Source: Candidatus Babeliales bacterium (GTDB lineage Bacteria; Babelota; Babeliae; Babelales; JANWKD01). From it: a stretch of DNA of 64,000 bases. Below are positions 6,468 through 48,290 of the stretch, piece after piece. The position numbers and the translations under genes are program-made. Within the stretch, counting starts at the first letter, position 1, and the number at the start of each line of letters is the position of its first letter. The stretch lies in contig CAVRJM010000001.1 in the NCBI GenBank assembly GCA_963722075.1, positions 352,001-416,000 on the forward strand, written 5' to 3'. The notes beneath the pieces are model-generated. The model saw only the letters and a program-made list of their open reading frames with translations, did not search any database and was not told where the DNA came from.

Positions 6468-6508
6468 GTCGTTGCGATCCAGCCTTCGCCCAAGGGGCTT
6501 CGGCGGAC
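6468..6508. repeat. Family A end fragment (GTCGTTGCGA) plus a single family B hairpin
   Basis: TCCAGCCTTCGCCCAAGGGGCTTCGGCGGAC abuts the stop codon of 6508..8016. Confidence 0.75.
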
Positions 6509-8016
6509 TAAAACGAAGTTCCGACCTTTGCCCATACATGGCCCATTTTAAATGATCTATTAGTGCCAGAAAATTCAATACCACCACCAAGACCAACAAA
6601 TGGTTGGCTCCAGCACCAATCCCATAAATAGCCGATATGAACAAAGAACCCATGAGAGAATGCGCCTGGATGTGCCGCAGATTCAAAATTAAGGTCACTA
6701 TTAGAAATGAATACCGGGGATGCATCAAGAATAGAAGCATTTGTACCATCAATTTGAGTTAAACTGGCTGTTGTATTGGTGCCAGCACCAGCAGTACCAC
6801 TTAATCCAGCAATACCAAAGGTATTCGCAGGAATTTGGCCAATTACATCAATATGGTCTCGCGTGCGGCCCCATAAATTGTAGCCAGCATCAAGGATGAA
6901 ATTGCAACGTAAATATTCAAGCATAAAAACAAGATCACCATGAGCTCTATTTTTAGTCTTAATTGGCAAGGTTAAAATATTCGGGCCACGAACAATTTCT
7001 CCAGCGTACGCGCCAGCATTAAATCGTTTAAATAATAGATATCTGCTGCCGATACCATTGTTTTTAAGATCAAAAGTTCGCATTTGTCTTGATTTGAGCA
7101 TGGTATAGATATTGCCATTAATGAATCCGGTTAAAAACTCATCACAACCATTTTCCCATAATAAGAAATTACCTAATATTCCTGCTCCCACCTCAAAATA
7201 ATGCCCATTACCCACAATAGGTTCAAAAAAGAAAACGCCATTTGGTCGATTGCCGGTGGGTATAATAGTGCGTACATTAACGCTAAAATAATTACATTCA
7301 TCGTTAAGAAATATACAACCTAAAGCACATTCAAAATCAGCAAAAGATGATTTTTTTCGTTTACCATCTACCCGAGCAAATTGGAGTGGTTGCTTTACAT
7401 CAAAAAAGGTTGCTTGGCCGTCCCATGCAGTTATCATAGAATTAAATGGTGCAGGGGTATCAGTAGGATTTCCTAATTCATTTGCTAGAATTGCCGTTCC
7501 AGAAGTGCTGACTGTTTCTTTAAAATCGATTGACCATTGAGTGCGTGCATAAGGAAGATGCGCGGCCAGGTAAAACGTATAACATCCAATATCAAAACCG
7601 TAGAACCCATTAATATCTATGAGTTCATTTTGTACTGAGGGGCGTGCAGTGATGCCACTATTAAAATTATCGTTTACCAAGAAATTCTGTCCAAAAATAT
7701 CAATGCCAGGGCCTGCTGCCGTTCCTGTTTGCATGGTGTCAGTATTATTAAAGAAAAGATATTTACCAATATCATGTTTATTAAATGATTTTGAATACTC
7801 GGCGGTGCTCCAGAGTACGCCATTTGAACAATCGTCATAGCCCCAGGTAATTAAGTAACCTACACCAGCACTCTCACGTGCTTTGTTTGAACCAATAGAA
7901 CGTCCATGAAAAAAGGTACGGCCAAACACATCGCGATTATCGTTAAACTGATTATCGGCAACAAGATAAATAGGAATGAAGAGAGTGACGAAAATAATGG
8001 TACGTAGATACTTCAT
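6508..8016 (-). CDS. Putative outer-membrane beta-barrel protein, paralog 1
   Basis: Signal peptide, alternating aromatic/Gly strands, C-terminal VWAKVGTSF (BamA-type beta signal); homologous to 11178..12758 over its length. Confidence 0.7.
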   Translation of the reverse strand: MKYLRTIIFVTLFIPIYLVADNQFNDNRDVFGRTFFHGRSIGSNKARESAGVGYLITWGYDDCSNGVLWSTAEYSKSFNKHDIGKYLFFNNTDTMQTGTAAGPGIDIFGQNFLVNDNFNSGITARPSVQNELIDINGFYGFDIGCYTFYLAAHLPYARTQWSIDFKETVSTSGTAILANELGNPTDTPAPFNSMITAWDGQATFFDVKQPLQFARVDGKRKKSSFADFECALGCIFLNDECNYFSVNVRTIIPTGNRPNGVFFFEPIVGNGHYFEVGAGILGNFLLWENGCDEFLTGFINGNIYTMLKSRQMRTFDLKNNGIGSRYLLFKRFNAGAYAGEIVRGPNILTLPIKTKNRAHGDLVFMLEYLRCNFILDAGYNLWGRTRDHIDVIGQIPANTFGIAGLSGTAGAGTNTTASLTQIDGTNASILDASPVFISNSDLNFESAAHPGAFSHGFFVHIGYLWDWCWSQPFVGLGGGIEFSGTNRSFKMGHVWAKVGTSF

Positions 8017-8230
8017 ACAGGCCTCTTTTTTACAAGGAAATTTTTATGATGGTTTTAAGGTAATATTTTTTTTGAAATCAATCAATTAATTCTTTTATAG
8101 AAAAATATGCCTATAGATTAGTGTTTTATAAAAATAAAATATTTTCAGGGTGAATAAAAACCATTGAAAAACGGCCTTTAACTGGAGTATTCTAATAATA
8201 TAGTCAGATTAAAGACTATAAAAAGGGGAA

Positions 8231-9307
8231 ATGGTAATGAAGCTAAAAAAAATACTTTTTATGCTATTATGCAGTACTGCAGGGTTATCTTATGCACAAT
8301 GTGATAAAAAAACGTTTGACCAATTACTTGCTAGAATTAAAACGGGTTATATTTATGATTTATATGGGTTTATCGATACAGCAAAAGTACGTACCTTTGC
8401 TGAAGATAACCCCTTTAAATCGATTCCCTCAGTGGCACAATTAAATAGCTGGAATTCATTAATATCATGCACTCATAAATATATCACTGAGCAAATTGCA
8501 TTAAAAAAGGCGCCAACTATCTATAAAACGTATCTTAAAGAATTGGAATCAACCACTAAAGATATTCTTGCACTCATTAAGTTATTAAATGCTCTTTATA
8601 GTAAAAATGTTATTGTCAGCCAAAATATTAAACTTAAAACAGTTGAATCATATCGGCCATTATCAGCAGCAGATAAAAAAGAACTTGAACTTCTAATAAA
8701 AAAAATAGATTCATATAAAAATATAATAAATTCAATCTTTATTTTATCGCTGGAAGAAATAGTGACGGCAGCTGGTTACCCTGCTGCATGGAAAAATGAA
8801 GTTTCCTCTTCTTTAGATGAAATTTTTAATGATTTTCCTTATTTTTTCGATACGTATCAAGAGGCAAAAAAGAAATTTAAAAATATGAGCCCGGAAGAAT
8901 TAGTTTATTTTTTACGTATTTCAAATTTGATAAAAGCACCCTATAAAGAAAATCAAAGAGAATATGAATTTGAGTTACAGAAATTAGCAACCGCACTTTT
9001 TAATAAATTAGAAAAATTTGATTACCGCGTTTCTGATGAGGCTAAAAAGATTCAAGAGCGTATAGATAATGCTTGGATTGCCAGTAGAGAAGACAAACAA
9101 CGATTGGCGTATTTGAAAAAGCTTAGTGCCGACACTCATGAAATTATGAACGCATTATTGCTCGTGTTCCCATTATCTCCGCGCTATATGGATATGTTAG
9201 CACGCACAAAAGATGCTACTTCATTGCTTATTTTTGCCGAATCAGCGGCATTAACTTCAGAACTGCAAGCTTTAAAAAGAAATGCTTTATTATTAAAAGG
9301 AAAATAG
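8231..9307 (+). CDS. Secreted helical protein, tandem paralog 1 of 3
   Basis: Signal peptide; shared xCD, W....C, P..W...V, LLI.AE motifs. Confidence 0.75.
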   Translation: MVMKLKKILFMLLCSTAGLSYAQCDKKTFDQLLARIKTGYIYDLYGFIDTAKVRTFAEDNPFKSIPSVAQLNSWNSLISCTHKYITEQIALKKAPTIYKTYLKELESTTKDILALIKLLNALYSKNVIVSQNIKLKTVESYRPLSAADKKELELLIKKIDSYKNIINSIFILSLEEIVTAAGYPAAWKNEVSSSLDEIFNDFPYFFDTYQEAKKKFKNMSPEELVYFLRISNLIKAPYKENQREYEFELQKLATALFNKLEKFDYRVSDEAKKIQERIDNAWIASREDKQRLAYLKKLSADTHEIMNALLLVFPLSPRYMDMLARTKDATSLLIFAESAALTSELQALKRNALLLKGK

Positions 9308-9309
9308 TT

Positions 9310-10206
9310 ATGAAATTAAAAATATATAATACACTTTTTTTACTAACAGCCATGAGCTGTAATTCGCTCTTAAATGCTACCTGCGATGAGGTGACTAAAA
9401 AAATGGTGATTACTGATATCCAAAAGCCGCAAACAGTATATCACAAAATTCAAAATCCTCTTAGTGGTGATTTAAAAAATCCAAAATTATTAGATGCATT
9501 TAAAGCATGGATCAATTACACCGATTGCGCAGAATCACTCATTAATAATCCTGCATATGCTGACATGAAAGTGGCAGTACAGCAAGCTAAATTATATGCT
9601 TTGGGATCAATTATCAAATTACAAACGAATCGTACCAATGCCATAGATCTTGAAAATATTAAACAATTAATAAAAGTAATGGATTTGTTATTTATTACGG
9701 CCTTGCGTGAAATTCATCGAGAAGTACCGACCCCTTCTTCTTGGAAAAAAGATGTTTTAGCTTCAACACTTGAAGATTTCTTTGTTGGGCATGAACAGTT
9801 TTTTAAAAATTATGAAGCTACAAAAAAACAATTTGCACAATATAAAGGCGTTTTTGACACACAGCGAATAGTAGATTTTGTACGAAATCAGCATTTTATC
9901 AAAAAAGGTCCACAGGAACAAAATAGTATTAATTTTCTTGTTGATGCATTAGAAAAAACAATAATTAAGTTAGAAGAGAATAGTAAAAAAGCGTGGTTTG
10001 GCAAAGGGGATATGCAACGAAAAATTGGGGATAGCAAAGAAATAATTGCGGCCTTAATTAAACAATATCCATTTACTGAGACCTCACAGATGTATCAAAA
10101 AATATCATTTTCCCAAAATATAGCATTGTTAATTTTACTTGCTGAAGCAGGTTCTTTATTAGGAATTTTAAAACGAATTGAAAACTATCTAGAAAAAAAT
10201 AAATAA
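9310..10206 (+). CDS. Secreted helical protein, tandem paralog 2 of 3
   Basis: ATCDE, AWINYTDCA, TPSSWKKDVLA, LLILLAE. Confidence 0.75.
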   Translation: MKLKIYNTLFLLTAMSCNSLLNATCDEVTKKMVITDIQKPQTVYHKIQNPLSGDLKNPKLLDAFKAWINYTDCAESLINNPAYADMKVAVQQAKLYALGSIIKLQTNRTNAIDLENIKQLIKVMDLLFITALREIHREVPTPSSWKKDVLASTLEDFFVGHEQFFKNYEATKKQFAQYKGVFDTQRIVDFVRNQHFIKKGPQEQNSINFLVDALEKTIIKLEENSKKAWFGKGDMQRKIGDSKEIIAALIKQYPFTETSQMYQKISFSQNIALLILLAEAGSLLGILKRIENYLEKNK

Positions 10207-10223
10207 TAATTAAAGGAGAGAGA

Positions 10224-11096
10224 ATGATGAAAAAGCTTATAATACTTAGTTGCCTGCTGCCATTCTGTGCGCAAGCAATGGTGTGTGATTATCAAACACG
10301 CCAACAAATTAACAAAGATAAAAAAGCACCATACCAGATATATGAAAATATTCAGAAGTTATTTATACCCGTTTTAAATGCAAATATGAAAAATTATTAC
10401 TATTTTACCGAAGCATGGAAAAGCTGGGACGCTTATACTGATTGTGCTCATGAATTAATAACGAATTCGGAATTCAAAGAAGATAAAGATATCTTAGTGT
10501 TTGCTAAATATAGAATTAAAGATACCGTCGAAAAAATCAATGGAGTACCTGACCAAACAAGATTAAGAAAAATGTTAAAAGAATTGGCAGATATTTATAG
10601 CAATGCATTGCAGGTTATTAATGAAGAAGTAGATACGCCGTTAGACTGGGAAAGCGCTGTTTTAGCACAGTCTGCAGAAGATATTTTCCCCCATTACAAA
10701 ATAAGCTTGTTATTGCCCTATGAAGAATTAAAGAAAAAAAGTGCATTTGATAATAAAAAAATTCTTGATTTTGTGAAGAATCTTGAAAGAATCGCATCAG
10801 GAGAAGATGAACAACAAGCTATTAATAATTTTGCCGACAAAATAGATAAACTTATTTACCGTTTAGAAGCAGATAAAAAAAGAACCTGGTATAGTAAAAG
10901 AGAACTGCAGAAAGAAATTAATGACTTAGAAGAAATTTTTGATGCACTTAATGAACGTTATATTATTGAAACGAGTCTTATGCGCGAAAAAATTTCCTTA
11001 TCAACAGATTTAGATGCGCTTATAATTTTATCCGAAACAAAAAATCTTATAACTATTGGGCAAAAGGTAAAGAATTTTCTAGATTCACGTAAGTAA
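10224..11096 (+). CDS. Secreted helical protein, tandem paralog 3 of 3
   Basis: MVCDY, SWDAYTDCA, TPLDWESAVLA, LIILSE. Confidence 0.75.
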   Translation: MMKKLIILSCLLPFCAQAMVCDYQTRQQINKDKKAPYQIYENIQKLFIPVLNANMKNYYYFTEAWKSWDAYTDCAHELITNSEFKEDKDILVFAKYRIKDTVEKINGVPDQTRLRKMLKELADIYSNALQVINEEVDTPLDWESAVLAQSAEDIFPHYKISLLLPYEELKKKSAFDNKKILDFVKNLERIASGEDEQQAINNFADKIDKLIYRLEADKKRTWYSKRELQKEINDLEEIFDALNERYIIETSLMREKISLSTDLDALIILSETKNLITIGQKVKNFLDSRK

Positions 11097-11119
11097 ATGA
11101 ATCCTTATAGCAAAAAGAC

Positions 11120-11149
11120 AAAAAGCGCGGAAAATTTTCCGCGCTTTTT
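11120..11149. terminator. Bidirectional intrinsic terminator
   Basis: AAAAAGCGCGGAAAATTTTCCGCGCTTTTT between convergent genes. Confidence 0.85.
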
Positions 11150-11177
11150 CGTTTAAATTATATCTACGTTGAATGCT

Positions 11178-12758
11178 TTATGAGAATGCGAAGCCGCCTT
11201 TAATCCAAATTCCCCATTGGTCAAGTGCAAAATTATGATCGCCTGAGAATTCTACTTCGCCGCCTAACCCTAAAAATGGGGTATAATCACAATTTTCCCA
11301 CGCATAGCTGGCATGAGCAAAGAATTTATGTGAAATAGCTCGCGGATGCGCTGCTGAATCAATAAATAGTTGGCTATTATTAATGAAGACAGCCGTGCTA
11401 TCAAATGGGCCACCGGTTCCATTAATGTGAGCAGTACTTTGTGTCTGAAGAGCTTCAGGGCCCGCAGAGAGTGTTTGTCCTTTTAACCCATAGGTATTTG
11501 GTTGAATCATTTCGATATTGCTAATTTTATCCTCGCTACGAGTCCAGAGATTGTAACCAGTATCAAGCGTAAAACCACAACGATAATAATCAAAAAGCAA
11601 TGCAGCTTCAATATGATAAGAATTACGGACTTTACATTGCAATGCTAACACATTGGGACCAAATAAAATTTCAGACAGCGCTGTTGGGGTGGCACCACCG
11701 GTAAATTTTTTAATTAATAATCTACTGCTACCAATATTTTGCGTGCCATCGGCATTAGCTAAATCAAATATTCTGCGCTGACGGCCTTTGAGCACGGTAT
11801 AAATATCTGCTTCTGCCCATACGCTAAATGCTGAATCGCAGCAGTTATTCCAGAATTCATAGTGTGTAGAAAAGCCAGCACCTACTTCATAATGCTTACC
11901 ATTACCAGCAACTGGTTCAAAAAGGAACACGGCATTCGGACGATTACTGGAAGGGAAAACAACACGGAAATCAGCGCCTAAATGGTAACATTCATGGCAA
12001 AGGAAATTATATCCAAGCGCTGCTTCAATATCACCAAGTCGTGTTTTAGTTTGTTTGCCGCTTGCTTCACTTGAACCGCTCAGTGCATCAGATGTATCAA
12101 CGCGACCAAATTGTAAAACTTGTTTTAAAAGGGGAAAATCTATGGTATCTAATGTTTGCCCATTATATGCTGTTAAAATACTGCCAATGGGTGAAGGGAG
12201 GGCGCTCGTATTTCCCAATTCATTTGCTGCGATTGTAGTACCTGAACTGGTAATGTTTTCATCAAAATTAACGGTCCAACGAGTCCATACTAATGGTGCA
12301 TGGATATCTAAATAAAGACCACAAACCCATTCATCTAAATTAAGTCTAAATTGAATATCTAAAAGCGCATTTTCTACCCGCGGAAGTGCGGTGAGGGTTC
12401 CGTTAAAGTTATCATTAAGGAAAAAATTTTCTGCAAAGACATCAACGCCCGTACCGCCTGCAGCGCCAAATGTCATCATGTTGGTACCGTTATAGAAAAG
12501 GTATTTTCCTATTTCATCGCGATCAAATGAACGCGTATACTCAGGGGTGAAGGACAGAAATCCATTGAGACAATCTATGTCGCAGGGTACAAGAAATTCT
12601 GTTGTTCCTACTAAACGTCTTGCTAGATTAGACCATTGTGGTCGTTGGCTGAAAAATGTATGGCCAAATGTTTTACTAGATGGATCATCAAGTGCATATA
12701 TAAATCCAAAAGAGGTACATAAAAAGAGAAATAAAAATTTTTTAATAGTTGGTTTCAT
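11178..12758 (-). CDS. Putative outer-membrane beta-barrel protein, paralog 2
   Basis: Signal peptide; FG.TFF, IGKYLF, FEP..GNG..YEVGAG shared with 6508..8016; C-terminal WIKGGFAFS. Confidence 0.7.
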   Translation of the reverse strand: MKPTIKKFLFLFLCTSFGFIYALDDPSSKTFGHTFFSQRPQWSNLARRLVGTTEFLVPCDIDCLNGFLSFTPEYTRSFDRDEIGKYLFYNGTNMMTFGAAGGTGVDVFAENFFLNDNFNGTLTALPRVENALLDIQFRLNLDEWVCGLYLDIHAPLVWTRWTVNFDENITSSGTTIAANELGNTSALPSPIGSILTAYNGQTLDTIDFPLLKQVLQFGRVDTSDALSGSSEASGKQTKTRLGDIEAALGYNFLCHECYHLGADFRVVFPSSNRPNAVFLFEPVAGNGKHYEVGAGFSTHYEFWNNCCDSAFSVWAEADIYTVLKGRQRRIFDLANADGTQNIGSSRLLIKKFTGGATPTALSEILFGPNVLALQCKVRNSYHIEAALLFDYYRCGFTLDTGYNLWTRSEDKISNIEMIQPNTYGLKGQTLSAGPEALQTQSTAHINGTGGPFDSTAVFINNSQLFIDSAAHPRAISHKFFAHASYAWENCDYTPFLGLGGEVEFSGDHNFALDQWGIWIKGGFAFS

Positions 12759-12918
12759 CTACAAAACTCCTTATTGTTTTTAAAGCTGGGCATACCATCG
12801 AATGTTTTCATTGCATTTGATCACACGCTACTGAATTTCCAATGATTCGTCAATATTGAAAGAGGTATAATTTATGGTATGGTTGAGTTTTGTAAAAACA
12901 TTATAGATTTACGCAAAC

Positions 12919-13065
12919 CTGGATTCTTAGGCTTCGCTCAGAATGACATACGACACGGTCATCCTGAGGAACTTGCGTCCGACTTCGCCATGGCTACGCC
13001 GGATTCCTCAATAGCAAAGTGCGTGTCCGGCGGAGTTTTAACGGAGACGGAACGTGAGGATACAG
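12919..13065. repeat. Composite palindromic repeat: family A (right half then left half) carrying a family B doublet at 12975-13051
   Basis: CTGGATTC..CTCAGAATGAC / GTCATCCTGAG-[GCGTCCGACTTCGCCATGGCTACGCCGGA...TGTCCGGCGGAGTTTTAACGGAGACGGA]-ACGTGAGGATACAG. Confidence 0.85.
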
Positions 13066-13095
13066 TAAATAAATTAACATTCTAATTTTGATTTT

Positions 13096-13869: not shown

Positions 13870-13882
13870 GTAGGAATATAAT

Positions 13883-16105: not shown

Positions 16106-16237
16106 ATTAAAATAAAATTTTTTTATTTTTAAAAAACTCTTTTTTTTATACTTGACAAATGTTCAAAAAGCAGACATTTTTTCCAACGTATTAGTACAGC
16201 ATTTTTAGTAAATTTTAACATTAAAAGGCGGAGAAAT

Positions 16238-17641: not shown

Positions 17642-17645
17642 GGAT

Positions 17646-18536: not shown

Positions 18537-18543
18537 AAATAGT

Positions 18544-18572
18544 TTGACAAATAAGGGGTGCATGGGTAAATT
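18544..18572 (+). promoter_or_regulatory. Sigma70-type promoter for spoVG
   Basis: TTGACA-17 bp-TAAATT. Confidence 0.55.
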
Positions 18573-18651
18573 AATGGTGTATTGTTTGATAGTTGTTATA
18601 TCAAGCCAATAAAATGAGATAGTAAAAAGATTATTTTTAAGGGCACAAGAA

Positions 18652-18942
18652 ATGAAAATAACAGAGGTAAAAGTATATCCAGCGAAGGAAAACGGTAGGC
18701 TTAAAGCTTACGCAACGATAATCTTTGATAATGATTTTATTGTGCGTGATCTGAAAGTAATTGAAGGGGAAAAAGGACTCTTTGTATCAATGCCTTCCCG
18801 TCGCCGCAAAGATGGCTCATTTAGAGACATTGTCCATCCGCTCAACGCTGATACTCGCAAGATGATTGAAGAATCTATTATTGGTGAGTATAATAAAGCG
18901 GTTAAAATGGGTTTTAGCACCTCCGCTGAATCTGAAGAATAA
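18652..18942 (+). CDS. spoVG: SpoVG family nucleic-acid-binding regulator
   Basis: MKITEVKV..LKAYATI.FD..F.VRDLKVIEG..GLFVSMPSR..DG.FRDIVHP. Confidence 0.93.
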   Translation: MKITEVKVYPAKENGRLKAYATIIFDNDFIVRDLKVIEGEKGLFVSMPSRRRKDGSFRDIVHPLNADTRKMIEESIIGEYNKAVKMGFSTSAESEE

Positions 18943-18975
18943 AAAGTAGTAATATAAAGTTATTTGAATTATTGT

Positions 18976-19050
18976 TGGGGCGTCGCCAAGTGGTAAGGCA
19001 CCAGGTTTTGGTCCTGGCATTCGGAGGTTCGAATCCTTCCGCCCCAGCCA
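18976..19050 (+). tRNA. tRNA-Gln (TTG)
   Basis: TGGGGCG/CGCCCCA acceptor stem, anticodon arm CCAGG-TTTTGGT-CCTGG, GGTTCGAATCC T arm, encoded CCA. Confidence 0.97.
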
Positions 19051-19188
19051 TCCTTCGCTCTTACAGAGCTACGGCTGGGCAAGCCAGTTGTTTAAATGAA
19101 ATATACATAATAGAAAAGTGAAGAGCGAAGGCTGTCACGCCCTAGCTTATGCTTCAAAGTTATACCCGAGAAAAAAGCGACGGCGGAC
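19051..19188. repeat. Inverted doublet of family B hairpins between tRNA-Gln and the GIY-YIG gene
   Basis: TCCTTCGCTCTTACAGAGCTACGGCTGGGCAAGCC (+) and TGTCACGCCCTAGCTT...AAGCGACGGCGGAC (-). Confidence 0.75.
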
Positions 19189-19243
19189 TATAACTCGAAT
19201 TTCCTCTATTTTAAATAATAGTTATATTATCTGATTTCTTAAA

Positions 19244-19483
19244 ATGTATTATGTCTATATATTAAATTCAGTTATTGATAAAAATCGTATGTATGTCGGT
19301 TGTACAATTGATCTAGAAAATAGACTAAACGAACACAATGCTGGTGAATGTATACATACGAACAAGTACAAGCCATGGAAATTGTGGACTTACATATATT
19401 TTGAGAATAAAGAAAAGGCAATCGCTTTTGAACGTTACTTAAAATCTGGTTCTGGTAGATCTTTTTCAAAAAGGCATTTTTAA
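19244..19483 (+). CDS. Stand-alone GIY-YIG nuclease
   Basis: YYVYIL...MYVGCT.DLENRL.EHN.G...T.KY.PW...A..FE.YLKSGSGR; catalytic Tyr, Arg and Glu positions present. Confidence 0.92.
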   Translation: MYYVYILNSVIDKNRMYVGCTIDLENRLNEHNAGECIHTNKYKPWKLWTYIYFENKEKAIAFERYLKSGSGRSFSKRHF

Positions 19484-19485
19484 CT

Positions 19486-20118
19486 ATGCAATCAAACATC
19501 TTGCTCCTTGCTTCAAAATCACTCCAACGCCGAACGGCACTAGAACAAGCATGCATCCCTTTTAGAATTATCGAACAAAATGCTGATGAAAGCATTTGTG
19601 ATTATACGCTTCCATTCGGATCCCTTCTAGAATCAATTGCTATTCATAAAATGAATCATATTGTTATGCATGCTAATCTTGAGCATCCTGTTCAATTTGT
19701 TTTGACCGTGGATACCATGGTGCAAGATGGTGCGGGGAAAATATATGGTAAACCCTCATCTAAAGAAGTGGCACGATCATATATTAAAGCATTGCGTGAT
19801 AATCCGGGCCAGGTAGGCACTGCCTTTTGTCTTGATAAAAAAGAGTATGGAGATAATAGGTGGCATACAGTTGATCGCATTACCAAATTTGTGAGCGCCG
19901 GTTATTCGCTCGACATTCCCAATCATTGGATCGATACCTATTTTGATCAAGTGCCCGAATATCTTTCTATTGCCGGTGGACTTACTATCGAAGAATATGG
20001 AGCTCAATTTTTAAAAACCATTGACGGCTCTTATGGATGCGCAATAGGGCTTCCGCTTTATGAATTACGAGAATCATTAGATTTAATGGGATTTTTTACA
20101 TTGAAAAATTCAATCTGA
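19486..20118 (+). CDS. maf: Maf family nucleotide pyrophosphatase, paralog 1
   Basis: LLASKSLQRR, DE, TVDT, GKP, GSY..IGLP. Confidence 0.85.
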   Translation: MQSNILLLASKSLQRRTALEQACIPFRIIEQNADESICDYTLPFGSLLESIAIHKMNHIVMHANLEHPVQFVLTVDTMVQDGAGKIYGKPSSKEVARSYIKALRDNPGQVGTAFCLDKKEYGDNRWHTVDRITKFVSAGYSLDIPNHWIDTYFDQVPEYLSIAGGLTIEEYGAQFLKTIDGSYGCAIGLPLYELRESLDLMGFFTLKNSI

Positions 20119-23693: not shown

Positions 23694-23710
23694 TAAATTA
23701 TGTATTTAAA

Positions 23711-23900
23711 TCGGGACAAAGCATTTAAAATATCGAATTCAAAAGAGTTTAATAAAATGCTGGATTGCTTCGACAAGCTCGCAACGACGTTTTTTGCTTT
23801 CGGCTATCGTCGTCCCGAGCGAAGCGTGGGGATCCAGGCCAAATTAATATGATTTAATTTTTTTAGCTTAAATACTTATCATTTGATGCGTTTGTGCTGA
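23711..23900. mobile_element. MITE-like element (family C) containing a family A palindrome at about 23760-23838
   Basis: Imperfect TIRs TCGGGACAAAGCATT / ATGCGTTTGTGCTGA; aligns with 42232-42356 apart from a 68 bp internal segment. Confidence 0.75.
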
Positions 23901-24906: not shown

Positions 24907-25524
24907 ATGAATAATATTCTTTTATTGGCATCTCAATCATATTCGCGTCGTCAATTACTCAGTCAAGCAGCTATCCCTTTTGTATTGTTAGAACAATCAG
25001 CTGATGAAAATGCCTGCGATTGGAATATGCCACTTACTCAGTTAGTTACTTCAATCGCTAAGCATAAAATGGAACAGGTTATTTTACCGCGTCACACAGA
25101 TAGTAAACCGATTTTTGTGTTGACGGCTGATACCTTAACGCAAGATCTATCAGGAACGATTTTGGGTAAACCAACATCGCGATCCCATGCACTTGAAATG
25201 CTACGCGCAGTGCGCGCAGGGGCTCGTATTGCTACGGCATTTTGCTTAGATAAAAAAATTTATCGCTTTGATACCTGGCAGACCCAAGAACGAATTATAA
25301 TGGTAGTAGAATCGAGTTGTATATTTAATGTGCCTGAGCAATGGCTTGAACAATATCTTTATCATGTACCCGCATTAAGTTGTTCTGCAGCCATGTATAT
25401 TGAAGGGTATGGGGCGCAATTTTTAAAATCCGTAACGGGTTCTTATAGTACCATTATTGGTTTACCTATATGTGAGGTGCGGCAAGCCTTAGAAAAAATG
25501 GGATTTTTTAGCGAGAGTATTTAA
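24907..25524 (+). CDS. maf: Maf family nucleotide pyrophosphatase, paralog 2
   Basis: LLASQSYSRR, TADT, LGKP, GSYSTIIGLP. Confidence 0.85.
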   Translation: MNNILLLASQSYSRRQLLSQAAIPFVLLEQSADENACDWNMPLTQLVTSIAKHKMEQVILPRHTDSKPIFVLTADTLTQDLSGTILGKPTSRSHALEMLRAVRAGARIATAFCLDKKIYRFDTWQTQERIIMVVESSCIFNVPEQWLEQYLYHVPALSCSAAMYIEGYGAQFLKSVTGSYSTIIGLPICEVRQALEKMGFFSESI

Positions 25525-27002: not shown

Positions 27003-27065
27003 TATTTTTTCCTTTTTTTACTTAAAATACCGAAGTATAACCTTGAAAGCAATATTTCTGCACTT

Positions 27066-27256
27066 GTCATTCCGAGCGCGTCCGACCTCGCCACGGGGCT
27101 CCGCCGGATTCCGTCAATGATAGTGTGCCTGTCCGGCGAAGTTGTTTACACCGCCATAGCTTTTAGCGACGGCCGGATTAACGTAGATGGATGGGAATCC
27201 ATTAATAAGATTTTTCATTTATAAATGGATCACCACGGCTAACGCCTCGTGATGAC
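27066..27256. repeat. Triple-nested palindromic repeat (family A > family B doublet > extra family B hairpin)
   Basis: GTCATTCCGAG...CTCGTGATGAC outer inverted ends; B doublet 27078-27191; 34 bp insert 27144-27177. Confidence 0.85.
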
Positions 27257-27350
27257 GTTTTGTGGTTTTTATTGATTTTATAAGCCTTTTTTTGTTATTT
27301 TAATATAGTAGTATAAAAGTAGCCTTACGTTAAAAATAGGAGGTAATATC

Positions 27351-34096: not shown

Positions 34097-34097
34097 T

Positions 34098-39049: not shown

Positions 39050-39137
39050 TAGTAGTAAAAATTGTTGCAAATAAAAAATATTTTATGGCATGCTATCATT
39101 GTTGTAGTATTACGGATTAAATAAAGGAGTTTCGTAT

Positions 39138-39377
39138 ATGATGAATTGTTCTCCAGCAATGAAAATTGTTGCAAAGATTTCAATGTTAATTTGTTCATTA
39201 GCTGCAATTCACATGGGTCTTATGGAAATGGGATATAATCTTATTGATACCATGAAATTAGCTGAATATGCACGTCCACTTGGTTATATTGTCGGTATAG
39301 CTGGTGTGATCAGCTTAGTGATGCTTATTTTGTGGTGTACGAAGTCTCATTGTGACACCACCGGATCATGTCGATAA
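39138..39377 (+). CDS. Small two-TM protein (DUF378-like), copy 1
   Basis: KISMLICSLAAIHMGL...YIVGIAG; AAGGAG RBS. Confidence 0.75.
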   Translation: MMNCSPAMKIVAKISMLICSLAAIHMGLMEMGYNLIDTMKLAEYARPLGYIVGIAGVISLVMLILWCTKSHCDTTGSCR

Positions 39378-39388
39378 AGGAGTTTACG

Positions 39389-39652
39389 ATGCATTGTTCT
39401 CCCGTTATGAAGATCGTTGCAAAGATTTCAATGTTAATTTGTTCATTAGCTGCAATTCACATAGGTTTGATGGAAATGGGATATAATCTCATTGATCCCA
39501 TGAAGCTTGCTGAATATGCACGTCCGCTTGGCTATATTGTTGGTATAGCTGGATTAATCAGCTTAGTGATGCTAGTGATGTGGTGCATGAAATCTCATTG
39601 TGGCTGCGGACCAGGATGTTCTGGATCATGCAGTTCCGGTTCTTGCCGATAA
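39389..39652 (+). CDS. Small two-TM protein (DUF378-like), copy 2 with Cys-rich tail
   Basis: Near-identical to copy 1; ATG 39389 follows AAGGAG; tail HCGCGPGCSGSCSSGSCR. Confidence 0.75.
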   Translation: MHCSPVMKIVAKISMLICSLAAIHIGLMEMGYNLIDPMKLAEYARPLGYIVGIAGLISLVMLVMWCMKSHCGCGPGCSGSCSSGSCR

Positions 39653-39675
39653 GCTGTTAAAAAAATTAGAAAGCT

Positions 39676-39721
39676 AAAAAGCTAGATAATGATACAAAAA
39701 TAATCGTTATCTAGCTTTTTT
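39676..39721. terminator. Bidirectional intrinsic terminator
   Basis: AAAAAGCTAGATAATGAT...ATCGTTATCTAGCTTTTT. Confidence 0.8.
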
Positions 39722-39746
39722 ATTTATGCTCATCAAAGCCTAAAAA

Positions 39747-40649: not shown

Positions 40650-40721
40650 AACAATCCTTTTAATAGATACCTATAACTATCCTATTAAAAGAATGAAAAA
40701 AGTAAAATTATCGATTTATGC

Positions 40722-42095: not shown

Positions 42096-42231
42096 ATAAA
42101 CCTACCCATAATAAGCAATTATATTAATATTATAATTATATATTATTTGTAAATAAATTAAAGAGGGGTATTATCGTATAATTGAGTGAAAAAATATGAT
42201 ATTTAGAAAAAGTATATGCGGGTAAGGGAAG

Positions 42232-42356
42232 TCAGGACAAATGCATTTAAAACATCAGATTAAAAAGGCTTAAATATAATGCTGGATCCAGGCTAAAGTT
42301 AAATATCCTTTAAATATTTTTGGCTAAATGCTTATTATCTGAGACGTTTGTACTAA
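42232..42356. mobile_element. MITE-like element (family C), empty form
   Basis: TCAGGACAAATGCATTTAAAA...ATGCTGGATCCAGGC...ACGTTTGTACTAA; homologous to 23711-23900. Confidence 0.7.
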
Positions 42357-42419
42357 AGTGAAATGCGCGCTTTATTTGGTGGGCATTTCGATAGTGAATT
42401 TATTCTATTTGGTAAGCTC

Positions 42420-42887
42420 TTAAACTATTCTTTTTTCCAAATATTCAATGAATGTTAGTAGTTCTTGAGCGCGGGTTTGAATAGTAGTTGGATGGTCACT
42501 GCCTAGAAATCGATTACCGATTATAGCTAGTTTCTTTTGAATAGCTTCATTTTTTATATTGGCAGGACAATGATCAACGGCAGTAATAATATTGGTGAGA
42601 TCATTGAGAATTTTTTGTATTTTAGCTTTTTTATGTTCTAAGGTGGTGAGTGCTACTTGTTTATCTGAGATTCGTTGATTAATAATATCATTTTCAATGA
42701 TTACCAATTTATTATTAATTTTTTCTAATTTTAATCGCTTTTGTTGCAATTTTATTTTATAGGGGCCATATAGCTTGTGAATAAAGGAAAGAGCAACGGT
42801 AGTTGGATTATTAGAGGTTATTGCATGGGCATTCATTGATATAAAGCAGAGTAAAAAAGTAATGGCTATTTTATAATTTTTGAACAT
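42420..42887 (-). CDS. Secreted coiled-coil hypothetical protein
   Basis: Signal peptide AHA|I; AAGGAG RBS; TTGACT-18-TATACT upstream. Confidence 0.7.
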   Translation of the reverse strand: MFKNYKIAITFLLCFISMNAHAITSNNPTTVALSFIHKLYGPYKIKLQQKRLKLEKINNKLVIIENDIINQRISDKQVALTTLEHKKAKIQKILNDLTNIITAVDHCPANIKNEAIQKKLAIIGNRFLGSDHPTTIQTRAQELLTFIEYLEKRIV

Positions 42888-42993
42888 AATAGCTCCTTTT
42901 ATTAAGTAATTTATTTATAGTTATAAGTATACCATTTTCTTACTATTAAAGTCAAATTAGTTTTCTAATAGAAAATATGCTCTTTGATGCCAG

Positions 42994-44304
42994 TTAATGA
43001 GTTTGTTTTTTATAGTTTTCCTGTAGCAGAGAGGTAATTTCAACATTAGAATGGTTAATGGTTAAATCATTCAGAGTAATAGTAGCACCTTTACGCAGTA
43101 ATAATTTAATTATTTTTACGTAATTATTATACTGATAATGATCGTGTGTAGGTATGTTTTCCAGCGCAAATGTTAAAGCGGAGTAATTAAGATTTTCTTT
43201 ATAGTTAATATCGGCTTCGCATTTAATTAATTTTTTTACTGCTTCTCTTTGACCGTGAATGCATGCAAATTGTAATGCTGATAGCCCGTTTTCAGCAGTT
43301 GTGCAATTTACATCGGCGCTTCCTTGATGAACAATATGATGTATATTTTTGGGGTTATATAGAATTGCTACAAATAAAATATTAAAAGGATCTTCTGAAA
43401 AAGCCTCGGGTACTTCGGACTCATTATTGTTTCCTTCCAAATCATTTGGGTGAAAGTTTTGATTAAAATCGAAGCCCGCTTCATACATTCGTTTAAAATT
43501 ATGTGGTTTTTTAAAATCAACAATTATTAATAAATCTTCAAACCATAACGTTGCGCCTTTTTGTATAAGCGAGACACCTAATTCAGGGAATTTTTTAAGC
43601 GATATGCCTAAAGCGTTTTCACCGATTTCATTATCTTCAAGTTGTAATTGAATATCATCGCCAAGAATAGCAATTATCTTTCTAGCCACCATTTCATAAT
43701 TATGTTGTAATGCAGTTAGTAAAGGGGATTTATTAAATTTATCATAATTGCTTAGTAATGGTATTGGACTTGCGTTATTTGATAATGTTTCCATTACCTC
43801 TAAAAAGGCAATAGCACGCTTTTGTTTACCATGTGCGATACAATGATGAAAGGCATTCTGTCCGTCATTATTTACGGCGGTTATATTATCCATAGTATTA
43901 TTATAAATATTTGACAAAATGAATGCTTGTAAATCTGATGTGGTTGATAAATAATGTAAAACGGTATTGTTAAAACGAGAGCGATAATTATTAAATTCAT
44001 CTTGTAATTCAATAGGAAGTTTAGCATATGCTTCTGCCAATGGAACAAGTTTTTTTGGATATAATTTAAATACTATTGAGGGTTTTTGCTTAAAATATTT
44101 TATTAATTGGGTAAAAACTAATTCTTTTAAACTTTTGACTCTATTTGACTTTTTATATTCAGTTTCTTTAATTTTTTTTATAATTTTTGTTGTAATACTT
44201 TTTTCTTCTTTAGTTTCTTCTCGTGATCTTTTCATTGCCCATGCAGGGTAAATTACAAAAGATATTAATAATGAAAATAGACCGAATTTAATTTTATGAG
44301 TCAT
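42994..44304 (-). CDS. Secreted ankyrin-repeat protein with BC/SOCS-box-like motif
   Basis: AWA|MKRSR; SLKELVFTQL...KLPIEL; GQNAFHHC, KSPLLTAL, GLSALQFAC. Confidence 0.85.
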   Translation of the reverse strand: MTHKIKFGLFSLLISFVIYPAWAMKRSREETKEEKSITTKIIKKIKETEYKKSNRVKSLKELVFTQLIKYFKQKPSIVFKLYPKKLVPLAEAYAKLPIELQDEFNNYRSRFNNTVLHYLSTTSDLQAFILSNIYNNTMDNITAVNNDGQNAFHHCIAHGKQKRAIAFLEVMETLSNNASPIPLLSNYDKFNKSPLLTALQHNYEMVARKIIAILGDDIQLQLEDNEIGENALGISLKKFPELGVSLIQKGATLWFEDLLIIVDFKKPHNFKRMYEAGFDFNQNFHPNDLEGNNNESEVPEAFSEDPFNILFVAILYNPKNIHHIVHQGSADVNCTTAENGLSALQFACIHGQREAVKKLIKCEADINYKENLNYSALTFALENIPTHDHYQYNNYVKIIKLLLRKGATITLNDLTINHSNVEITSLLQENYKKQTH

Positions 44305-44334
44305 GATTTTATTTTCTCCATTTAAGCGATTGTA

Positions 44335-45135
44335 TTATTTTTTTTCTAATAGGGCGGAAATTTTTTTGCCTACTTTCATTCGTACTGAATATTTGGGATA
44401 GGTAATTATGTAAGGATCGCCAAATTTGTCTATTTGTTGTTGCATAAAATAAGCATTTCCCTCTGTATATTCTTTACCCTTCATGCAGCTCAAAATATCT
44501 GCCCGTAATTCTTGAAACTGAATTAATTTATTAAGTGGGTTATTTTTCTGATCAGTAATTGGTTTATAAGGAGTTGAGTTGCGTATAAAATAACGCGTAG
44601 AATGATCATGATGAATCAAATGAATAAGTTCATGTCCTATAATAAACTGTTGTCCTTCTGGCGATAACTTTTTGAACATACTTTCGTTTACAAAAATAAT
44701 GCTATCAGTAGAAGAAGCAGGTATTTCAATATTCCATGGTATCATTTCAACCTGAGTGCTATCAACGTTAAATTCAGCCATAATATCCTTAATCAATTGG
44801 ACGGTATCTGCCGAAATGAGTTGATTAGAATTATAATGTTTTTTCATATCTTGAATACTTGCCCAATAATCAGAATGAGGATCATTGCGTAATTGTTGGC
44901 ATTGATTAGCAGTCATTGGATATACAGCGCTAATTTCTTGCCATAATGCTGTTTGGGTGGTATCAAGCCATTCGAGTAGTTGATTGTCAGTAGTAACGTG
45001 ATCAAAGTTGACGGCATTAATGTTGAAATGTTTGGCTATTGAAGGTTCTATTTTTGTATTTTGTACATGCTTGGATGCATATATAACAATAATTCCTATC
45101 AAAATTGTGGGATAAAGTATGTATTTGAATTGCAT
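44335..45135 (-). CDS. HEXXH metallopeptidase (M48-like), paralog 2
   Basis: FIIGHELIH, QELRAD, TYPKYSVR. Confidence 0.75.
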   Translation of the reverse strand: MQFKYILYPTILIGIIVIYASKHVQNTKIEPSIAKHFNINAVNFDHVTTDNQLLEWLDTTQTALWQEISAVYPMTANQCQQLRNDPHSDYWASIQDMKKHYNSNQLISADTVQLIKDIMAEFNVDSTQVEMIPWNIEIPASSTDSIIFVNESMFKKLSPEGQQFIIGHELIHLIHHDHSTRYFIRNSTPYKPITDQKNNPLNKLIQFQELRADILSCMKGKEYTEGNAYFMQQQIDKFGDPYIITYPKYSVRMKVGKKISALLEKK

Positions 45136-45168
45136 GATTTTATTTTCTCCATTTAATTAATAATTTTA

Positions 45169-46560
45169 TTATTGATTCTTTTCTAATCGTTCAAGCTCTT
45201 GTTTTTGATAATACTCTTGTAGAAGATCAGATAATTTTTGATCTGCTTGTACAACTTCCTTATCATATGCTGAGATAGTAATGCCTTTGCGTAGTAACAA
45301 CTTAATTATTTTCAAAAGAGTTTCTGAGTCAGCAGATGTATCTTCGATATATTGTTCAAGAATGAAACTCAAAACGGTACCGCCAGTAGATTGTTCTTCA
45401 TTAAGATTTGCGCCTTCTTTAATGAGTTTTTTTATGGCAGAAATGTTATAGGTTTTAGCTGCAAATGATAAAGGGGATTCGCTATCAGCGCAGGCGTTAA
45501 CGTCGGCTTTGCCCTCACGTACAAGGCGAGTAATATTTTTGGGTTTATGCATAACTGCTAACATTAAGCAAGTAAACTCGCTATTACAGGGCTCATCTAT
45601 TTCATTAATATCGGGAATATAAAGGGCGCTTTGATCGAAATCAAAGTTAGCTTGATGGAGTTGCTTAAATAGAAGAGGGTCATCTGTTTGAGCTATAGCT
45701 TTTAAGTGGTTAAAATCTACTTCTGCCCCGTTTTTAATAAGTAATGGTACTAATCTTGGGACATTAACGATTGCTGCAATGAGAGGGTTTTGCCCACTTT
45801 TATTAGGTTTATTAAGATAATTGCTCAATTGATCAGGGTTATTGCCAACAATAGTAATAATTTTTTCAGCAATTTTTTTATAACCGTTTAATAACGCCAA
45901 TAATAAGGGATGATTGTTGTTGGGGTTAAGGACGTTGTCAATTAAACAGGCAGCATTGAATTTTACCATACCCTCTTCTTCTTCTTGGGCTAATTGTTCT
46001 TTCTCTATTTGTTGGGCGACATCTAATAAGGTATCTGCAATAGCTGGTTGTCTTTGTATAAGGCGAGAATATAATGCTGTATGCCAGTTGGGTACTATAC
46101 TATATTCTGTTGCGCTATTTTCATCATTGTTATTATTGTTTTCATTGTTATGAGTTTTGGTAGTAGGAATTTGATTAGATTCAATGGCTAATTTGATAAA
46201 TGCCTTTATATCTTGTGGATCAAATAATTTATGTAAAAGACTGGAATCTTTCTTATGAGAATGTTGATTGCATTCTATCCGTAATTCCACTGGTAAGCGA
46301 GGGTATGCTGCTGCTAATGTGCCCGGTATTCTTTTAAAATATTTTACCAATGCTTTTTTTGCCAATTTTTTTAAGGTTTTTATTTGTATTGGTTCACTGA
46401 GTTCTTCACTAAGGCATTTGGCTTCTTTCGCGCTTGAGCTTGCTCTATTGGTACCTCGTTCTAATTCATGTCTGGGTCTCTTCATTGCCCATGCAGAATG
46501 AGTTGCACAAGAAAGAAAGGCAAACGCTATTACTATATTAAGTTTAGTTTTAAAAATCAT
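45169..46560 (-). CDS. Secreted ankyrin-repeat protein with BC/SOCS-box-like motif
   Basis: AWA|MKRPR; TLKKLAKKAL...RLPVEL; HPLLLAL, GQNPLIAA, ESPLSFAA; paralog of 42994..44304. Confidence 0.85.
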   Translation of the reverse strand: MIFKTKLNIVIAFAFLSCATHSAWAMKRPRHELERGTNRASSSAKEAKCLSEELSEPIQIKTLKKLAKKALVKYFKRIPGTLAAAYPRLPVELRIECNQHSHKKDSSLLHKLFDPQDIKAFIKLAIESNQIPTTKTHNNENNNNNDENSATEYSIVPNWHTALYSRLIQRQPAIADTLLDVAQQIEKEQLAQEEEEGMVKFNAACLIDNVLNPNNNHPLLLALLNGYKKIAEKIITIVGNNPDQLSNYLNKPNKSGQNPLIAAIVNVPRLVPLLIKNGAEVDFNHLKAIAQTDDPLLFKQLHQANFDFDQSALYIPDINEIDEPCNSEFTCLMLAVMHKPKNITRLVREGKADVNACADSESPLSFAAKTYNISAIKKLIKEGANLNEEQSTGGTVLSFILEQYIEDTSADSETLLKIIKLLLRKGITISAYDKEVVQADQKLSDLLQEYYQKQELERLEKNQ

Positions 46561-46585
46561 GATTTTGTATTCTCCATTTTATAGT

Positions 46586-47401
46586 TTAAGTAGTTGTATT
46601 ATTTTTTTCTAAAAGTCCCACAATCTTTTTACCAATTGCCAAACGTGCTGATGGCTTTGGGTGCGAACTTGATTCTTGATCGCCATATTTTTGGATAAAG
46701 TGAGCAAAGAATTCAGCGGCACCTTGTGCATATTCAGTTCCGTGTAAGCTCGCTAAGATATCAGCACGCAATTCCTGAAATTGTGAAAGTTTGTGTAGTG
46801 AGTTGGGATCGGCATTAATTGCGGCTTTTTCAATAAAATAATTAGCTGAATGATCTTTTTTAATTAAATGTATCAACTCGTGGCCTATGGCAAATTTTTG
46901 TGCAGCAGGTGAAAGCTCAATAAGTAAGGGTTCGTTAATGAAAAGTAAGGTATCGCATGCCGCCGCTGCTGAAGGAAGATTCCACGCATATATAGTAATT
47001 CCCTTAGGATCGATGCCAAAATCCTTCATAATAGTATGTACTAATTGTATTGTTTGTTCTGATACTTTCTTATCTAATGCCGCATAATCTTTGATCATAG
47101 AAGTTATATAGGTAGTATACTCTTCTATAGAAGTTGTTTTTAATGCTTCGCATTGTTCAAATGAAAGATTTATAGCTTTTTGTAGCTCATGCCATACTGT
47201 TTGTTCCTCTTTAGTAAGCCATTCTTGATAATAAGTAAGTGAAGGGGCTTCTAGAAGGGCATTTTGAGCCAAATTAAACGTTTTAACAATTTTTGGCTCT
47301 ATAAGGGTAGGTTTATGGTCAGATTTAGCCCAAATTAAGGCTGCGATGGCTGCAAGAGCGCATAAGCCATTATATAAGAATAATTTATTGATTTTTACCA
47401 T
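46586..47401 (-). CDS. HEXXH metallopeptidase (M48-like), paralog 3
   Basis: FAIGHELIH, QELRAD, SSHPKPSARL; start at the second Met follows GGAG. Confidence 0.78.
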   Translation of the reverse strand: MVKINKLFLYNGLCALAAIAALIWAKSDHKPTLIEPKIVKTFNLAQNALLEAPSLTYYQEWLTKEEQTVWHELQKAINLSFEQCEALKTTSIEEYTTYITSMIKDYAALDKKVSEQTIQLVHTIMKDFGIDPKGITIYAWNLPSAAAACDTLLFINEPLLIELSPAAQKFAIGHELIHLIKKDHSANYFIEKAAINADPNSLHKLSQFQELRADILASLHGTEYAQGAAEFFAHFIQKYGDQESSSHPKPSARLAIGKKIVGLLEKNNTTT

Positions 47402-47485
47402 ATTAACTCCATTTTTTAACATTTTAGCTTATTTTTAGTATAAATATTAATTTATATTTGTCAATTTTTATACCTAATGGGTGTT

Positions 47486-47977
47486 TTATTGGTAAGGGTA
47501 GCTAATTTTTAAAAAAGAGGTGTAATATCCTATGGCAAGGATTGTTGATAGGCTTAATGAGGTCCATATGATGGTAGTATATGGCTGTTTTTTGTACCAC
47601 GGTTTTTGTAACCCCATTTTTGCCTTAACATGATGTTTTTTAGCCTTCCATCCAGCAGCATATACCGTATATAATAACGGGTTGATAGGATTGATTCTTG
47701 TAAGATCAAAAATGCGATTATTAATGCCATTACCAAACATTCCTACTTTATTGAATAGTATGTTTTCTATTGCTTTTCTATGTTCGGGTGTTAAATGATT
47801 ATTTTGATCAGATTGCTTTAAATATATATGCGGTGTAACTTCTTTATCTTCCGGAGAATGTAGTATGAAGGAGCCTTCGCACTTAGGATTATAACCAATA
47901 TATTTTGTTTCCATGCAGATTATTACGGTGCTTATTAAGAGGGAAATAGTTATTAAAGAGTTTTTGAACAGTTTCAT
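47486..47977 (-). CDS. Hypothetical protein with signal peptide and C-terminal TM
   Basis: IIC|ME signal, C-terminal hydrophobic helix. Confidence 0.65.
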   Translation of the reverse strand: MKLFKNSLITISLLISTVIICMETKYIGYNPKCEGSFILHSPEDKEVTPHIYLKQSDQNNHLTPEHRKAIENILFNKVGMFGNGINNRIFDLTRINPINPLLYTVYAAGWKAKKHHVKAKMGLQKPWYKKQPYTTIIWTSLSLSTILAIGYYTSFLKISYPYQ

Positions 47978-48133
47978 GGTTTTCTATTTTTTACAATATT
48001 ATTGTACCCAGTTTTTTATTCATGATGATAATTTCTTCAAGCAAGTATTGCAAGTTTTGGTAATAATTAATTCAAAAAATTTAATATATTTTTTTAGGCT
48101 CAGCTTTATAAGATTATTGTTTAGCAAAAAACC

Positions 48134-48290
48134 GTCGTCACGAGGAGCGGCGTCCGACTTCGCCAAGGCTACGACGGATTCCGTCAAAGCAAGCGCGCCT
48201 GTCCGTCGAAGTTTTAACGTAGACGGAACGTGGTGATCCAGGCTGAAATTTTCAAGGAACCCTGGATTGCTTCGACGAGCTCGCAACGAC
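48134..48290. repeat. Complete family A palindrome carrying a family B doublet at 48150-48227
   Basis: GTCGTCACGAG...CTCGCAACGAC ends; inner GATCCAGG/CCTGGATT stem; GCGTCCGACTTCGCCAAGGCTACGACGGA...TGTCCGTCGAAGTTTTAACGTAGACGGA. Confidence 0.88.

Follow-up and report, generated by a model that had tools for sequence, protein, structure and literature searches.

The 64,000-nucleotide stretch of DNA analysed here (the window, C1:352001-416000) belongs to the 1.47 Mb, 35% GC genome of a member of the Dependentiae, referred to as the source genome (G000); other labels beginning with G denote related genomes, and those beginning with L denote loci of nuclease homologues. At five sites the window carries a short hairpin repeat, the B hairpin or B unit, and it also holds the gene for P0001, a 79-residue GIY-YIG protein, which sits behind a tRNA-Gln gene, a hairpin that starts at the CCA of that tRNA, a half-unit and a second hairpin (Table 1). 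Four of the five sites lie in repeats of a different kind, the CGTC repetitive extragenic palindromes (REPs). The B hairpin is a real repeat with covarying stems and about 80 copies in the genome. It probably folds as the purine strand of single-stranded DNA (ssDNA) and forms the recognition site of the nuclease, whose predicted nicking would let host repair copy the hairpin; this reading draws on analogy with a characterised nuclease-repeat pair.

Table 1. B hairpins, host repeats and the nuclease locus, in window coordinates
Feature	Position	Strand	Basis
CGTC REP 5' arm hosting a B hairpin, 3' arm absent	6467..6477	+	sequence
Single B hairpin, purine strand on minus, directly after the REP 5' arm	6478..6508	-	anchor search
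Unfilled CGTC REP, partner of the filled REP at 12957	12920..12948	-	sequence
CGTC REP filled with an inverted doublet: units 12978-13003 (purine strand -) and 13026-13051 (purine strand +)	12957..13065	+	
tRNA-Gln(TTG)	18976..19050	+	
B hairpin beginning at the tRNA-Gln CCA; purine strand antisense to the tRNA; second CCA after the hairpin	19048..19086	-	
Half-unit, an inverted copy of the tRNA-side arm, with one mismatch here	19125..19134	+	
Degenerate second hairpin with a long loop, purine strand +, ahead of the nuclease gene	19135..19188	+	
Gene for the 79-aa single-domain Slx1-like GIY-YIG nuclease (P0001)	19244..19483	+	
Paired CGTC REPs without an insert, for comparison as empty host sites	23761..23836	not assigned	
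CGTC REP filled with a doublet: units 27081-27108 (-) and 27132-27191 (+)	27065..27201	+	
Third unit, ATA/GAC-type, inside the loop of unit 27132-27191	27150-27177	+	
Unfilled CGTC REP, partner of the REP at 27065	27226..27257	-	
CGTC REP filled with a doublet: units 48153-48178 (-) and 48202-48227 (+)	48133..48241	+	
Unfilled CGTC REP, partner of the REP at 48133, downstream of dnaK	48263..48291	-	

Read on its purine strand, a unit consists of an outer stem of 5-6 bp, a 3x3 internal loop, an inner stem of 3-5 bp and a short loop. A strict motif found 63 matches on contig C1, compared with 3, 2 and 0 in three local shuffles, and a genome search with outer anchors that made no demand on inner pairing returned 96 rows, 85 of them distinct, compared with 1-5 in five shuffles. 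In these anchor-selected units, taken up to an inner length of 14, inner-stem position 2 is paired in 74 of 78 (permutation mean 51.7, maximum 64) and position 3 in 75 of 77 (permutation mean 38.7, maximum 54); among the 40 distinct inner sequences the figures are 36/40 and 37/39. The first-pass annotation of this DNA had pointed to inner stems that differ between copies but pair in each. The stems it listed (GCC/GGC at 12987, GCTCT/AGAGC at 19057, GCCC/GGGC at 6488, GCT/AGC at 27159 and GTT/AAC in the second units) are all present, as is a GCC/GGC stem that it placed at 48160 and that begins at 48162, and its covariation holds in the larger sample. Because the copies fall into only a few stem types, the source genome provides few independent covariation events. 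The flanking unpaired triplets had been described as conserved and of TTC/TAC type. The 3x3 loop is indeed kept, but its letters are not always these, and the inverted second units read GTA/GAA/GGA. On the purine strand the loop is GWA/GWA in 55 of 78 units and of an ATA/GHC subtype in 23, the 27159 copy among these, the anchors themselves fixing part of the triplets.

A wider alignment was made of 41 anchor-selected 29-mers, comprising three window copies and 38 sequences picked by eye from 164 in other genomes, with two probably mis-anchored rows retained. In it 87.8% of cells pair, compared with 67.5% after shuffling and 24-48% in slid controls. Two-sided changes number 83 against 30.8 in the shuffled sets, none of 500 shuffles reaching as high, and they occur at seven of the nine stem pairs, the remaining two being fixed by the anchors. 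Inner and outer stems both covary around the 3x3 loop, which persists with one polarity across many phyla while the stem sequences turn over.

Doublets are inverted, with the two units in opposite orientation (20 doublets of one type), so that each strand carries one purine-strand hairpin. They can be drawn as one long hairpin in minimum-free-energy folds, but the covariation between units that had been offered as evidence for two alternative folds fails genome-wide: the position concerned is C:G in 15 of the 20 doublets, A:G in three, G:G in one and A:T in one, the last being the 48150 copy, which makes the change compensatory in one of five variant doublets. Three units, at C1:435611-437485 (+) and 1086998-1087573 (-), lie within called open reading frames (ORFs) near the 5' ends, and upstream over-extension of the ORF call may explain this rather than in-frame insertion. 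At window 6506-6510 the stop codon of an ORF (6508-8016, minus strand) overlaps the last base of the hairpin element, at the site where the host REP lacks its 3' arm.

The genome has eight GIY-YIG matches, namely UvrC, three Ssn-type genes and four genes of the P0001 clade. A tRNA trailer immediately precedes three of the clade copies and a degenerate one precedes the fourth, and the P0001 gene is the only one of the four that has an ATG start and no stop. Residues Y5, Y17, G19, R27, H31 and E63 are invariant among 32 P0001 homologues. The predicted structure (pLDDT 95.5) has HIGLE and Slx1 as its nearest folds, the nearest sequence and fold matches in the PDB being 1zg2, 7cq2 and 7wme, and a family name for P0001 was not found in NCBIfam. 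Clusters at 50% identity that match P0001 at E<=1e-10 number 1,160, a count that includes neighbouring clades. In a tree, 31 Ssn-type rows form one branch (99/98 support), among them a Neisseria homologue flanked by NTS repeats, and P0001 and its 27 relatives fall outside it.

Among 80 homologue loci from metagenomes, a hairpin lies no more than 250 nt upstream of the gene in 60 and downstream in 11. The upstream hairpins are sharply peaked, with 85 purine-sense hits in the last 200 nt and 0-2 per 100 nt beyond 400 nt. A tRNA or tmRNA gene on the same strand lies within 300 nt in 42 of the 80 loci, and the unit at the tRNA faces antisense whilst that at the nuclease gene faces sense. In relatives of the source genome an upstream hairpin is present at 29 of 40 P0001-clade genes, compared with 2 of 30 Ssn-type genes (5/30 if either side is counted), and a tRNA lies upstream of 26/40 and 0/30, respectively. 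Viral contigs supplied only four homologue loci. Hairpin-coded peptides at the N-termini of homologues were considered, but only 8 of 151 fit the patterns and the idea was not used; a DUF559 partner was not found in the genome. More distant small GIY-YIG genes stand beside other repeats at L020 (a different palindrome with a tRNA fragment), L022 (a direct repeat on both sides) and L017 (a tandem array), suggesting further nuclease-repeat pairs.

Gene and hairpin also occur together across genomes. In 150 other genomes of the order, with the gene scored as present on a clade hit at E<=1e-20 and hairpin-rich defined as at least seven pattern matches, 46 of 89 genomes with a P0001-clade gene are hairpin-rich, compared with 3 of 61 without. 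With one genome per genus the figures are 29/54 and 2/41, and in the largest family 20/36 and 0/19; a reversed-pattern control shows no difference between genomes with and without the gene. The threshold of seven was picked after the counts were seen, a rank test agrees with it, and p-values for the co-occurrence are overstated because related genomes are not independent. The CGTC pattern, in contrast, tracks Ssn, being present in 8 of 24 genomes with Ssn and 2 of 126 without. Hairpin-rich genomes with neither an Ssn hit nor the CGTC pattern number 34, although with one Ssn query and one pattern some may have been missed, and none of the six genomes with Ssn only is hairpin-rich. The B hairpin with the P0001 clade and the CGTC REP with Ssn are thus two separate families. 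In three hairpin-rich genomes without the CGTC pattern (G029, G090 and G140), a tRNA or tmRNA gene is close to only 2 of 30 sampled copies, and the others are free-standing or interrupt other repeats.

The association with tRNA ends has a form of its own. By eye, 28 of the 37 tRNA and tmRNA genes of the source genome carry a trailer that begins at the CCA and is able to pair with it, of which 12 are of B type and 16, a fully paired variant, have no GWA loop; 7 of 73 units are tRNA-linked. The 10-nt tRNA-side arm recurs as a perfect inverted copy before the nuclease gene in 39 of 62 loci, with 15 sequence types (permutation mean 4.5, maximum 10), the 62 being those of 120 loci with a parsable RNA end. 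The long-range covariation of this arm with the half-unit is real, and could have copying rather than selection as its source. In fully paired trailers (for example C1 283720-284064, 502746-503069, 587328-587564 and 972308-972654) the interior is found in both orientations and the 5-nt loop is flipped independently, a pattern suggestive of micro-inversion of the hairpin. At L011:700-811 and at L169, duplicated tRNA 5' fragments are directly followed by a hairpin, upstream of the intact tRNA.

Where units abut tRNA genes the purine strand runs antisense to the transcript, and it is there that the loops and mismatches speak to the nature of the folded strand. The tally covers 43 tRNA-abutting units from many genomes, some of them mis-parsed and all retained. 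Of 15 triloops, 12 are GNA on the antisense strand and none is GNA on the sense strand. Counted on the purine strand, the mismatches in the outer stem are G-T 15, G-A 15, G-G 9, C-T 5, T-T 3, A-C 2 and C-C 2; A-C on this strand would be a G-U wobble in RNA, and only the two were seen. GAA/GAA loops would form sheared G-A pairs. Mini-hairpins of GCGNAGC type are described in the text of PMC13037366 as far stabler in DNA (76.5 C for a DNA octamer, 39.0 C for RNA). Of the units in gaps between tandem genes, 27 have the purine strand antisense and 17 have it sense. The antisense-strand GNA triloops and the mismatch pattern at tRNA ends, together with the presence of dispersed units on either strand, favour ssDNA over RNA as the folding molecule, and the purine strand, with its GWA/GAA loop, is likely to be the strand that folds. 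Selection for a folded ssDNA or RNA had been proposed at the outset; the data bear out a folded single strand and, among the alternatives, point to DNA and to the purine strand.

Two further indicators were of less use. Two-base YYYR loops (CTTG, TTTA) predominate on the purine strand, but fail to tell the strands apart because the complement, YRRR, also makes DNA mini-loops, as stated in the text of PMC9975016. Nearest-neighbour energies were set aside as strand evidence because sheared pairs are not modelled and the preference for the purine strand is modest (47 of 67 as RNA, 52 of 67 as DNA). Rfam scans of the window, of 18950-19300 and of 20 related loci gave no match on the hairpins, and a scan of the genome for Acido-Lenti-1 gave a best score of 10.5 bits compared with a cut-off of 37. 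The fold is not favoured on the transcribed strand, and the loops and mismatches at tRNA ends favour the antisense strand.

In the source genome most B units are nested in CGTC REPs. Under a loose pattern 47 of 73 units are enclosed by the two arms of such a REP and 7 more follow a 5' arm, and there are 179 short, unfilled CGTC REPs. With the insert taken out of the sequence, what remains is identical to an empty REP found at another place in the genome in 3 of 9 loop insertions and 4 of 6 arm insertions. The insertion sites seen are tRNA CCA ends, CGTC REPs, the hairpin's own loop and the T-loop of a duplicated tRNA end. Insertions into REP loops and into a T-loop parse without target duplication, and the second CCA at tRNA ends and the repeated GGA in REP arms are also readable as 3-nt duplications. 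Leaders are mostly NNTG, GGAA or TTAC. Tandem copies occur at L054, L090, L041, L101 and L038. At L156 (G081:C49:598-2270) two identical 436-nt cassettes lie in tandem, both closing with a duplicated tRNA 3' end that has a hairpin in its T-loop, and L085 is similar; at L156, L085 and L177 the duplicated tRNA 3' end with its T-loop hairpin is downstream of the nuclease gene. Among sequencing runs overall the best share of the stretch's words was 0.16, and most matching contigs are the tRNA-Gln of other organisms. In a close relative, a single contig (run X3) agrees with 18898-19060, then carries 213 different letters where the window has 424, and rejoins the window sequence at the maf gene; a piece of 213 letters is too short for the nuclease gene.

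These features suggest how the hairpin may move. The purine strand would fold in transiently single-stranded DNA, with G-A pairs in the 3x3 loop, and P0001 would bind the hairpin and nick near its base, as SsnA does beside NTS. SsnA, as described in the text of PMC11893778, cuts only one strand, a few bases from the hairpin. Host repair, by template switching or recombination, would then write a new copy; the target is apparently not duplicated, and the 5' end often bears a short CNTG leader. Fold-back copying would also account for the exact half-unit. The secondary spread within the source genome probably owes much to CGTC REPs that were amplified with Ssn and carried the hairpin along as a passenger. 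A wider claim is more tentative and somewhat short of an even chance: that the pair represents an undescribed, widespread class of ssDNA mobile element, in which a hydrolytic GIY-YIG nuclease of 79 aa, in place of a transposase, moves a hairpin with a purine 3x3 loop that homes to tRNA CCA ends and parasitises other hairpin repeats, Ssn's included. If true, repeats would be nested like Russian dolls, and there would be a second family of site-specific ssDNA nucleases, one that reads a non-canonical loop and not the stem sequence.

Several observations weigh against recognition of a DNA hairpin by P0001 followed by copying. Six of the nine loop insertions fail to rebuild the exact empty site, 21 of 73 units have a GGAA or TTAC leader that does not end in TG, and the contig that skips the gene is a single record at a depth of 4.5. 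As to the partnership, 43 of the 89 genomes with the gene have fewer than seven hairpin matches, and G046, G075 and G149 are hairpin-rich (15-23 matches) without a strong clade hit; G046 and G075 have weaker GIY-YIG hits, which may represent a related clade. Gene and hairpin might both simply favour tRNA ends, and the nuclease tree has only 99 columns and an unsettled bootstrap. As to the folded strand, the rows of the 41-row alignment are mutually related, those of the 43-unit tally are related and some mis-parsed, triloops are less GNA-biased genome-wide (5 vs 2 of 17), and genome units show no replichore bias (leading/lagging 41 vs 36). The 28 CCA-pairing trailers, 16 of them without a GWA loop, would suit an RNA role too, and no RNA run contains more than 0.05 of the stretch's words.

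Such an RNA role would be that of a pre-tRNA 3' trailer that pairs with the CCA and guides processing, or that controls translation of the downstream gene, the dispersed copies being hairpins at mRNA ends. The constant position of the CCA trailers would fit it, as would the complement of the tRNA-side arm before the gene, which makes a switch possible, and the enrichment of units between convergent genes (20 of 74 intergenic units vs 69 of 459 long gaps). It is nevertheless unlikely: the loop on the transcribed strand is pyrimidine-rich, the mismatches there are A-C, T-C and C-C, no GNA, GNRA or UUCG loops were seen on the transcribed strand of tRNA-abutting units, dispersed copies lie on both strands and no Rfam family matches. 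The nesting in CGTC REPs raises another possibility, that the hairpin is a long-loop variant of the CGTC REP/Ssn-related motif spread by Ssn. The source genome has the means for this, as its three Ssn-type genes, at C1:1398405-1398695 (-), 140112-140396 (-) and 1361604-1361819 (+), each lie between inverted CGTC REPs; one is intact, one is altered in the second catalytic motif and one is broken. The hairpin-rich genomes devoid of both Ssn and the CGTC pattern, the poverty in hairpins of those with Ssn only, the free copies or copies in other repeats in G029, G090 and G140, and the rarity of upstream hairpins at Ssn genes make this reading distinctly improbable.

It could also be supposed that template switching, by perfecting quasi-palindromes, produced the covariation as a side effect, with neither selection for a fold nor a dedicated enzyme. 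Flipped interiors and loops in tRNA trailers, the few dominant stem types of the source genome and the half-unit, which copies the arm exactly with its loop triplet included, are of the kind that this process would leave. Correction should erase the 3x3 loop, yet the loop persists across phyla with one polarity, and the tie to one nuclease clade is left unexplained, so this account has very little probability. Least credible of all is a REPIN moved by a RAYT/HUH transposase. The comparison with REPINs was made in the first-pass annotation, and the layout does fit: the doublets are inverted, the target is apparently not duplicated, a short leader stands at the 5' end and copies form tandem arrays, all of which recalls REPINs and BIMEs. 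However, the GTAG tag is absent, the sole Y1 transposase gene comes with end hairpins of its own while no B unit lies within 330 nt to either side of it, and the enzyme linked to the hairpin is a GIY-YIG nuclease.

The hairpin-nuclease pair would work like Ssn/NTS or REP/RAYT, judged by analogy, while belonging to neither. The closest likeness is to Ssn and its NTS/SRM repeats (cd10448; text of PMC11893778): both have a single-domain GIY-YIG gene beside a dispersed, oriented hairpin repeat, their catalytic Tyr, Tyr and Glu match, P0001 having the Tyr/Tyr/Arg/His/Glu set of small single-domain GIY-YIG proteins, and one strand is the substrate for Ssn and likely so for P0001. P0001 differs in its length of 79 aa and its C-terminal YLKSxSGR motif, shares 33% over 55 aa with the local Ssn and lies outside the Ssn branch. 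Its hairpin, unlike the Ssn repeats, has a 3x3 internal loop, tolerates stem change, is tied to tRNA and tmRNA 3' ends and stands upstream of the gene, not as inverted flanks. The published SRM pattern occurs within 250 nt of none of 40 P0001-clade genes and of 5 of 30 Ssn genes, the pattern being weak here. The text of Chenal et al. (2025; PMC11893778) makes no mention of cd10449 or tRNA, and the review file that goes with it refers to bacterial SLX1-like proteins as a sparsely characterised sister clade.

CGTC REPs, as described in the text of Di Nocera et al. (2013; PMC3733652), are likewise short intergenic palindromes, often dimers, and are here the main hosts of the B hairpin. Their unpaired YGTC tag, 8-9 bp stem, 4-5 nt loop and CCA tail are absent from the B hairpin; the CGTC arms belong to the host REP, and the hairpin is present in genomes without the CGTC pattern. 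With REPIN/RAYT systems and IS200/IS605 ends the pair shares single-strand hairpin recognition (here predicted), inverted doublets, tandem arrays and the lack of evident target duplication, but its partner is a hydrolytic GIY-YIG nuclease and not an HUH transposase, there is no GTAG tag and no cognate RAYT is flanked by the repeat. The known members of the Slx1/HIGLE/UPF0213 group, to which the nearest PDB matches of P0001 belong, are structure-specific cutters of branched DNA; in contrast, P0001 is without a partner subunit or extra domain, and is multicopy, often broken and tied to a cognate repeat. Rfam motifs include other small structured intergenic repeats, but the B hairpin matches none. 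No description of the pair was found in the open-access literature, closed journals and supplements being outside the search, and the main text of bioRxiv 10.64898/2026.10.21.760802 does not mention GIY-YIG or Ssn, its supplements, which could list such a cluster, also being outside the search. The analysis contributes evidence on which strand folds and that it does so as DNA, a double dissociation of the pair from Ssn/CGTC, and the observation that units nest in other repeats.

The pair provides a candidate substrate for a large uncharacterised group of nucleases and a possible origin for GC-rich palindromes in reduced genomes, and it bears on how untagged REP-like repeats spread without a transposase. 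Two nested nuclease-repeat pairs in one genome make cross-specificity testable by short oligonucleotides, and a 79-residue enzyme that tolerates stem changes would, if truly such, be a useful ssDNA tool.

Elsewhere in the window there are other duplications. Two small tandem paralogous genes at 39134-39602 are 87% identical across 221 nt with a spacing of 248, two Maf-like paralogues (19486-20118 and 24907-25524) have 5.4 kb between them, and adjacent paralogous ORFs of 633 and 545 aa at 51490-55341 are 70-77% identical in three blocks.

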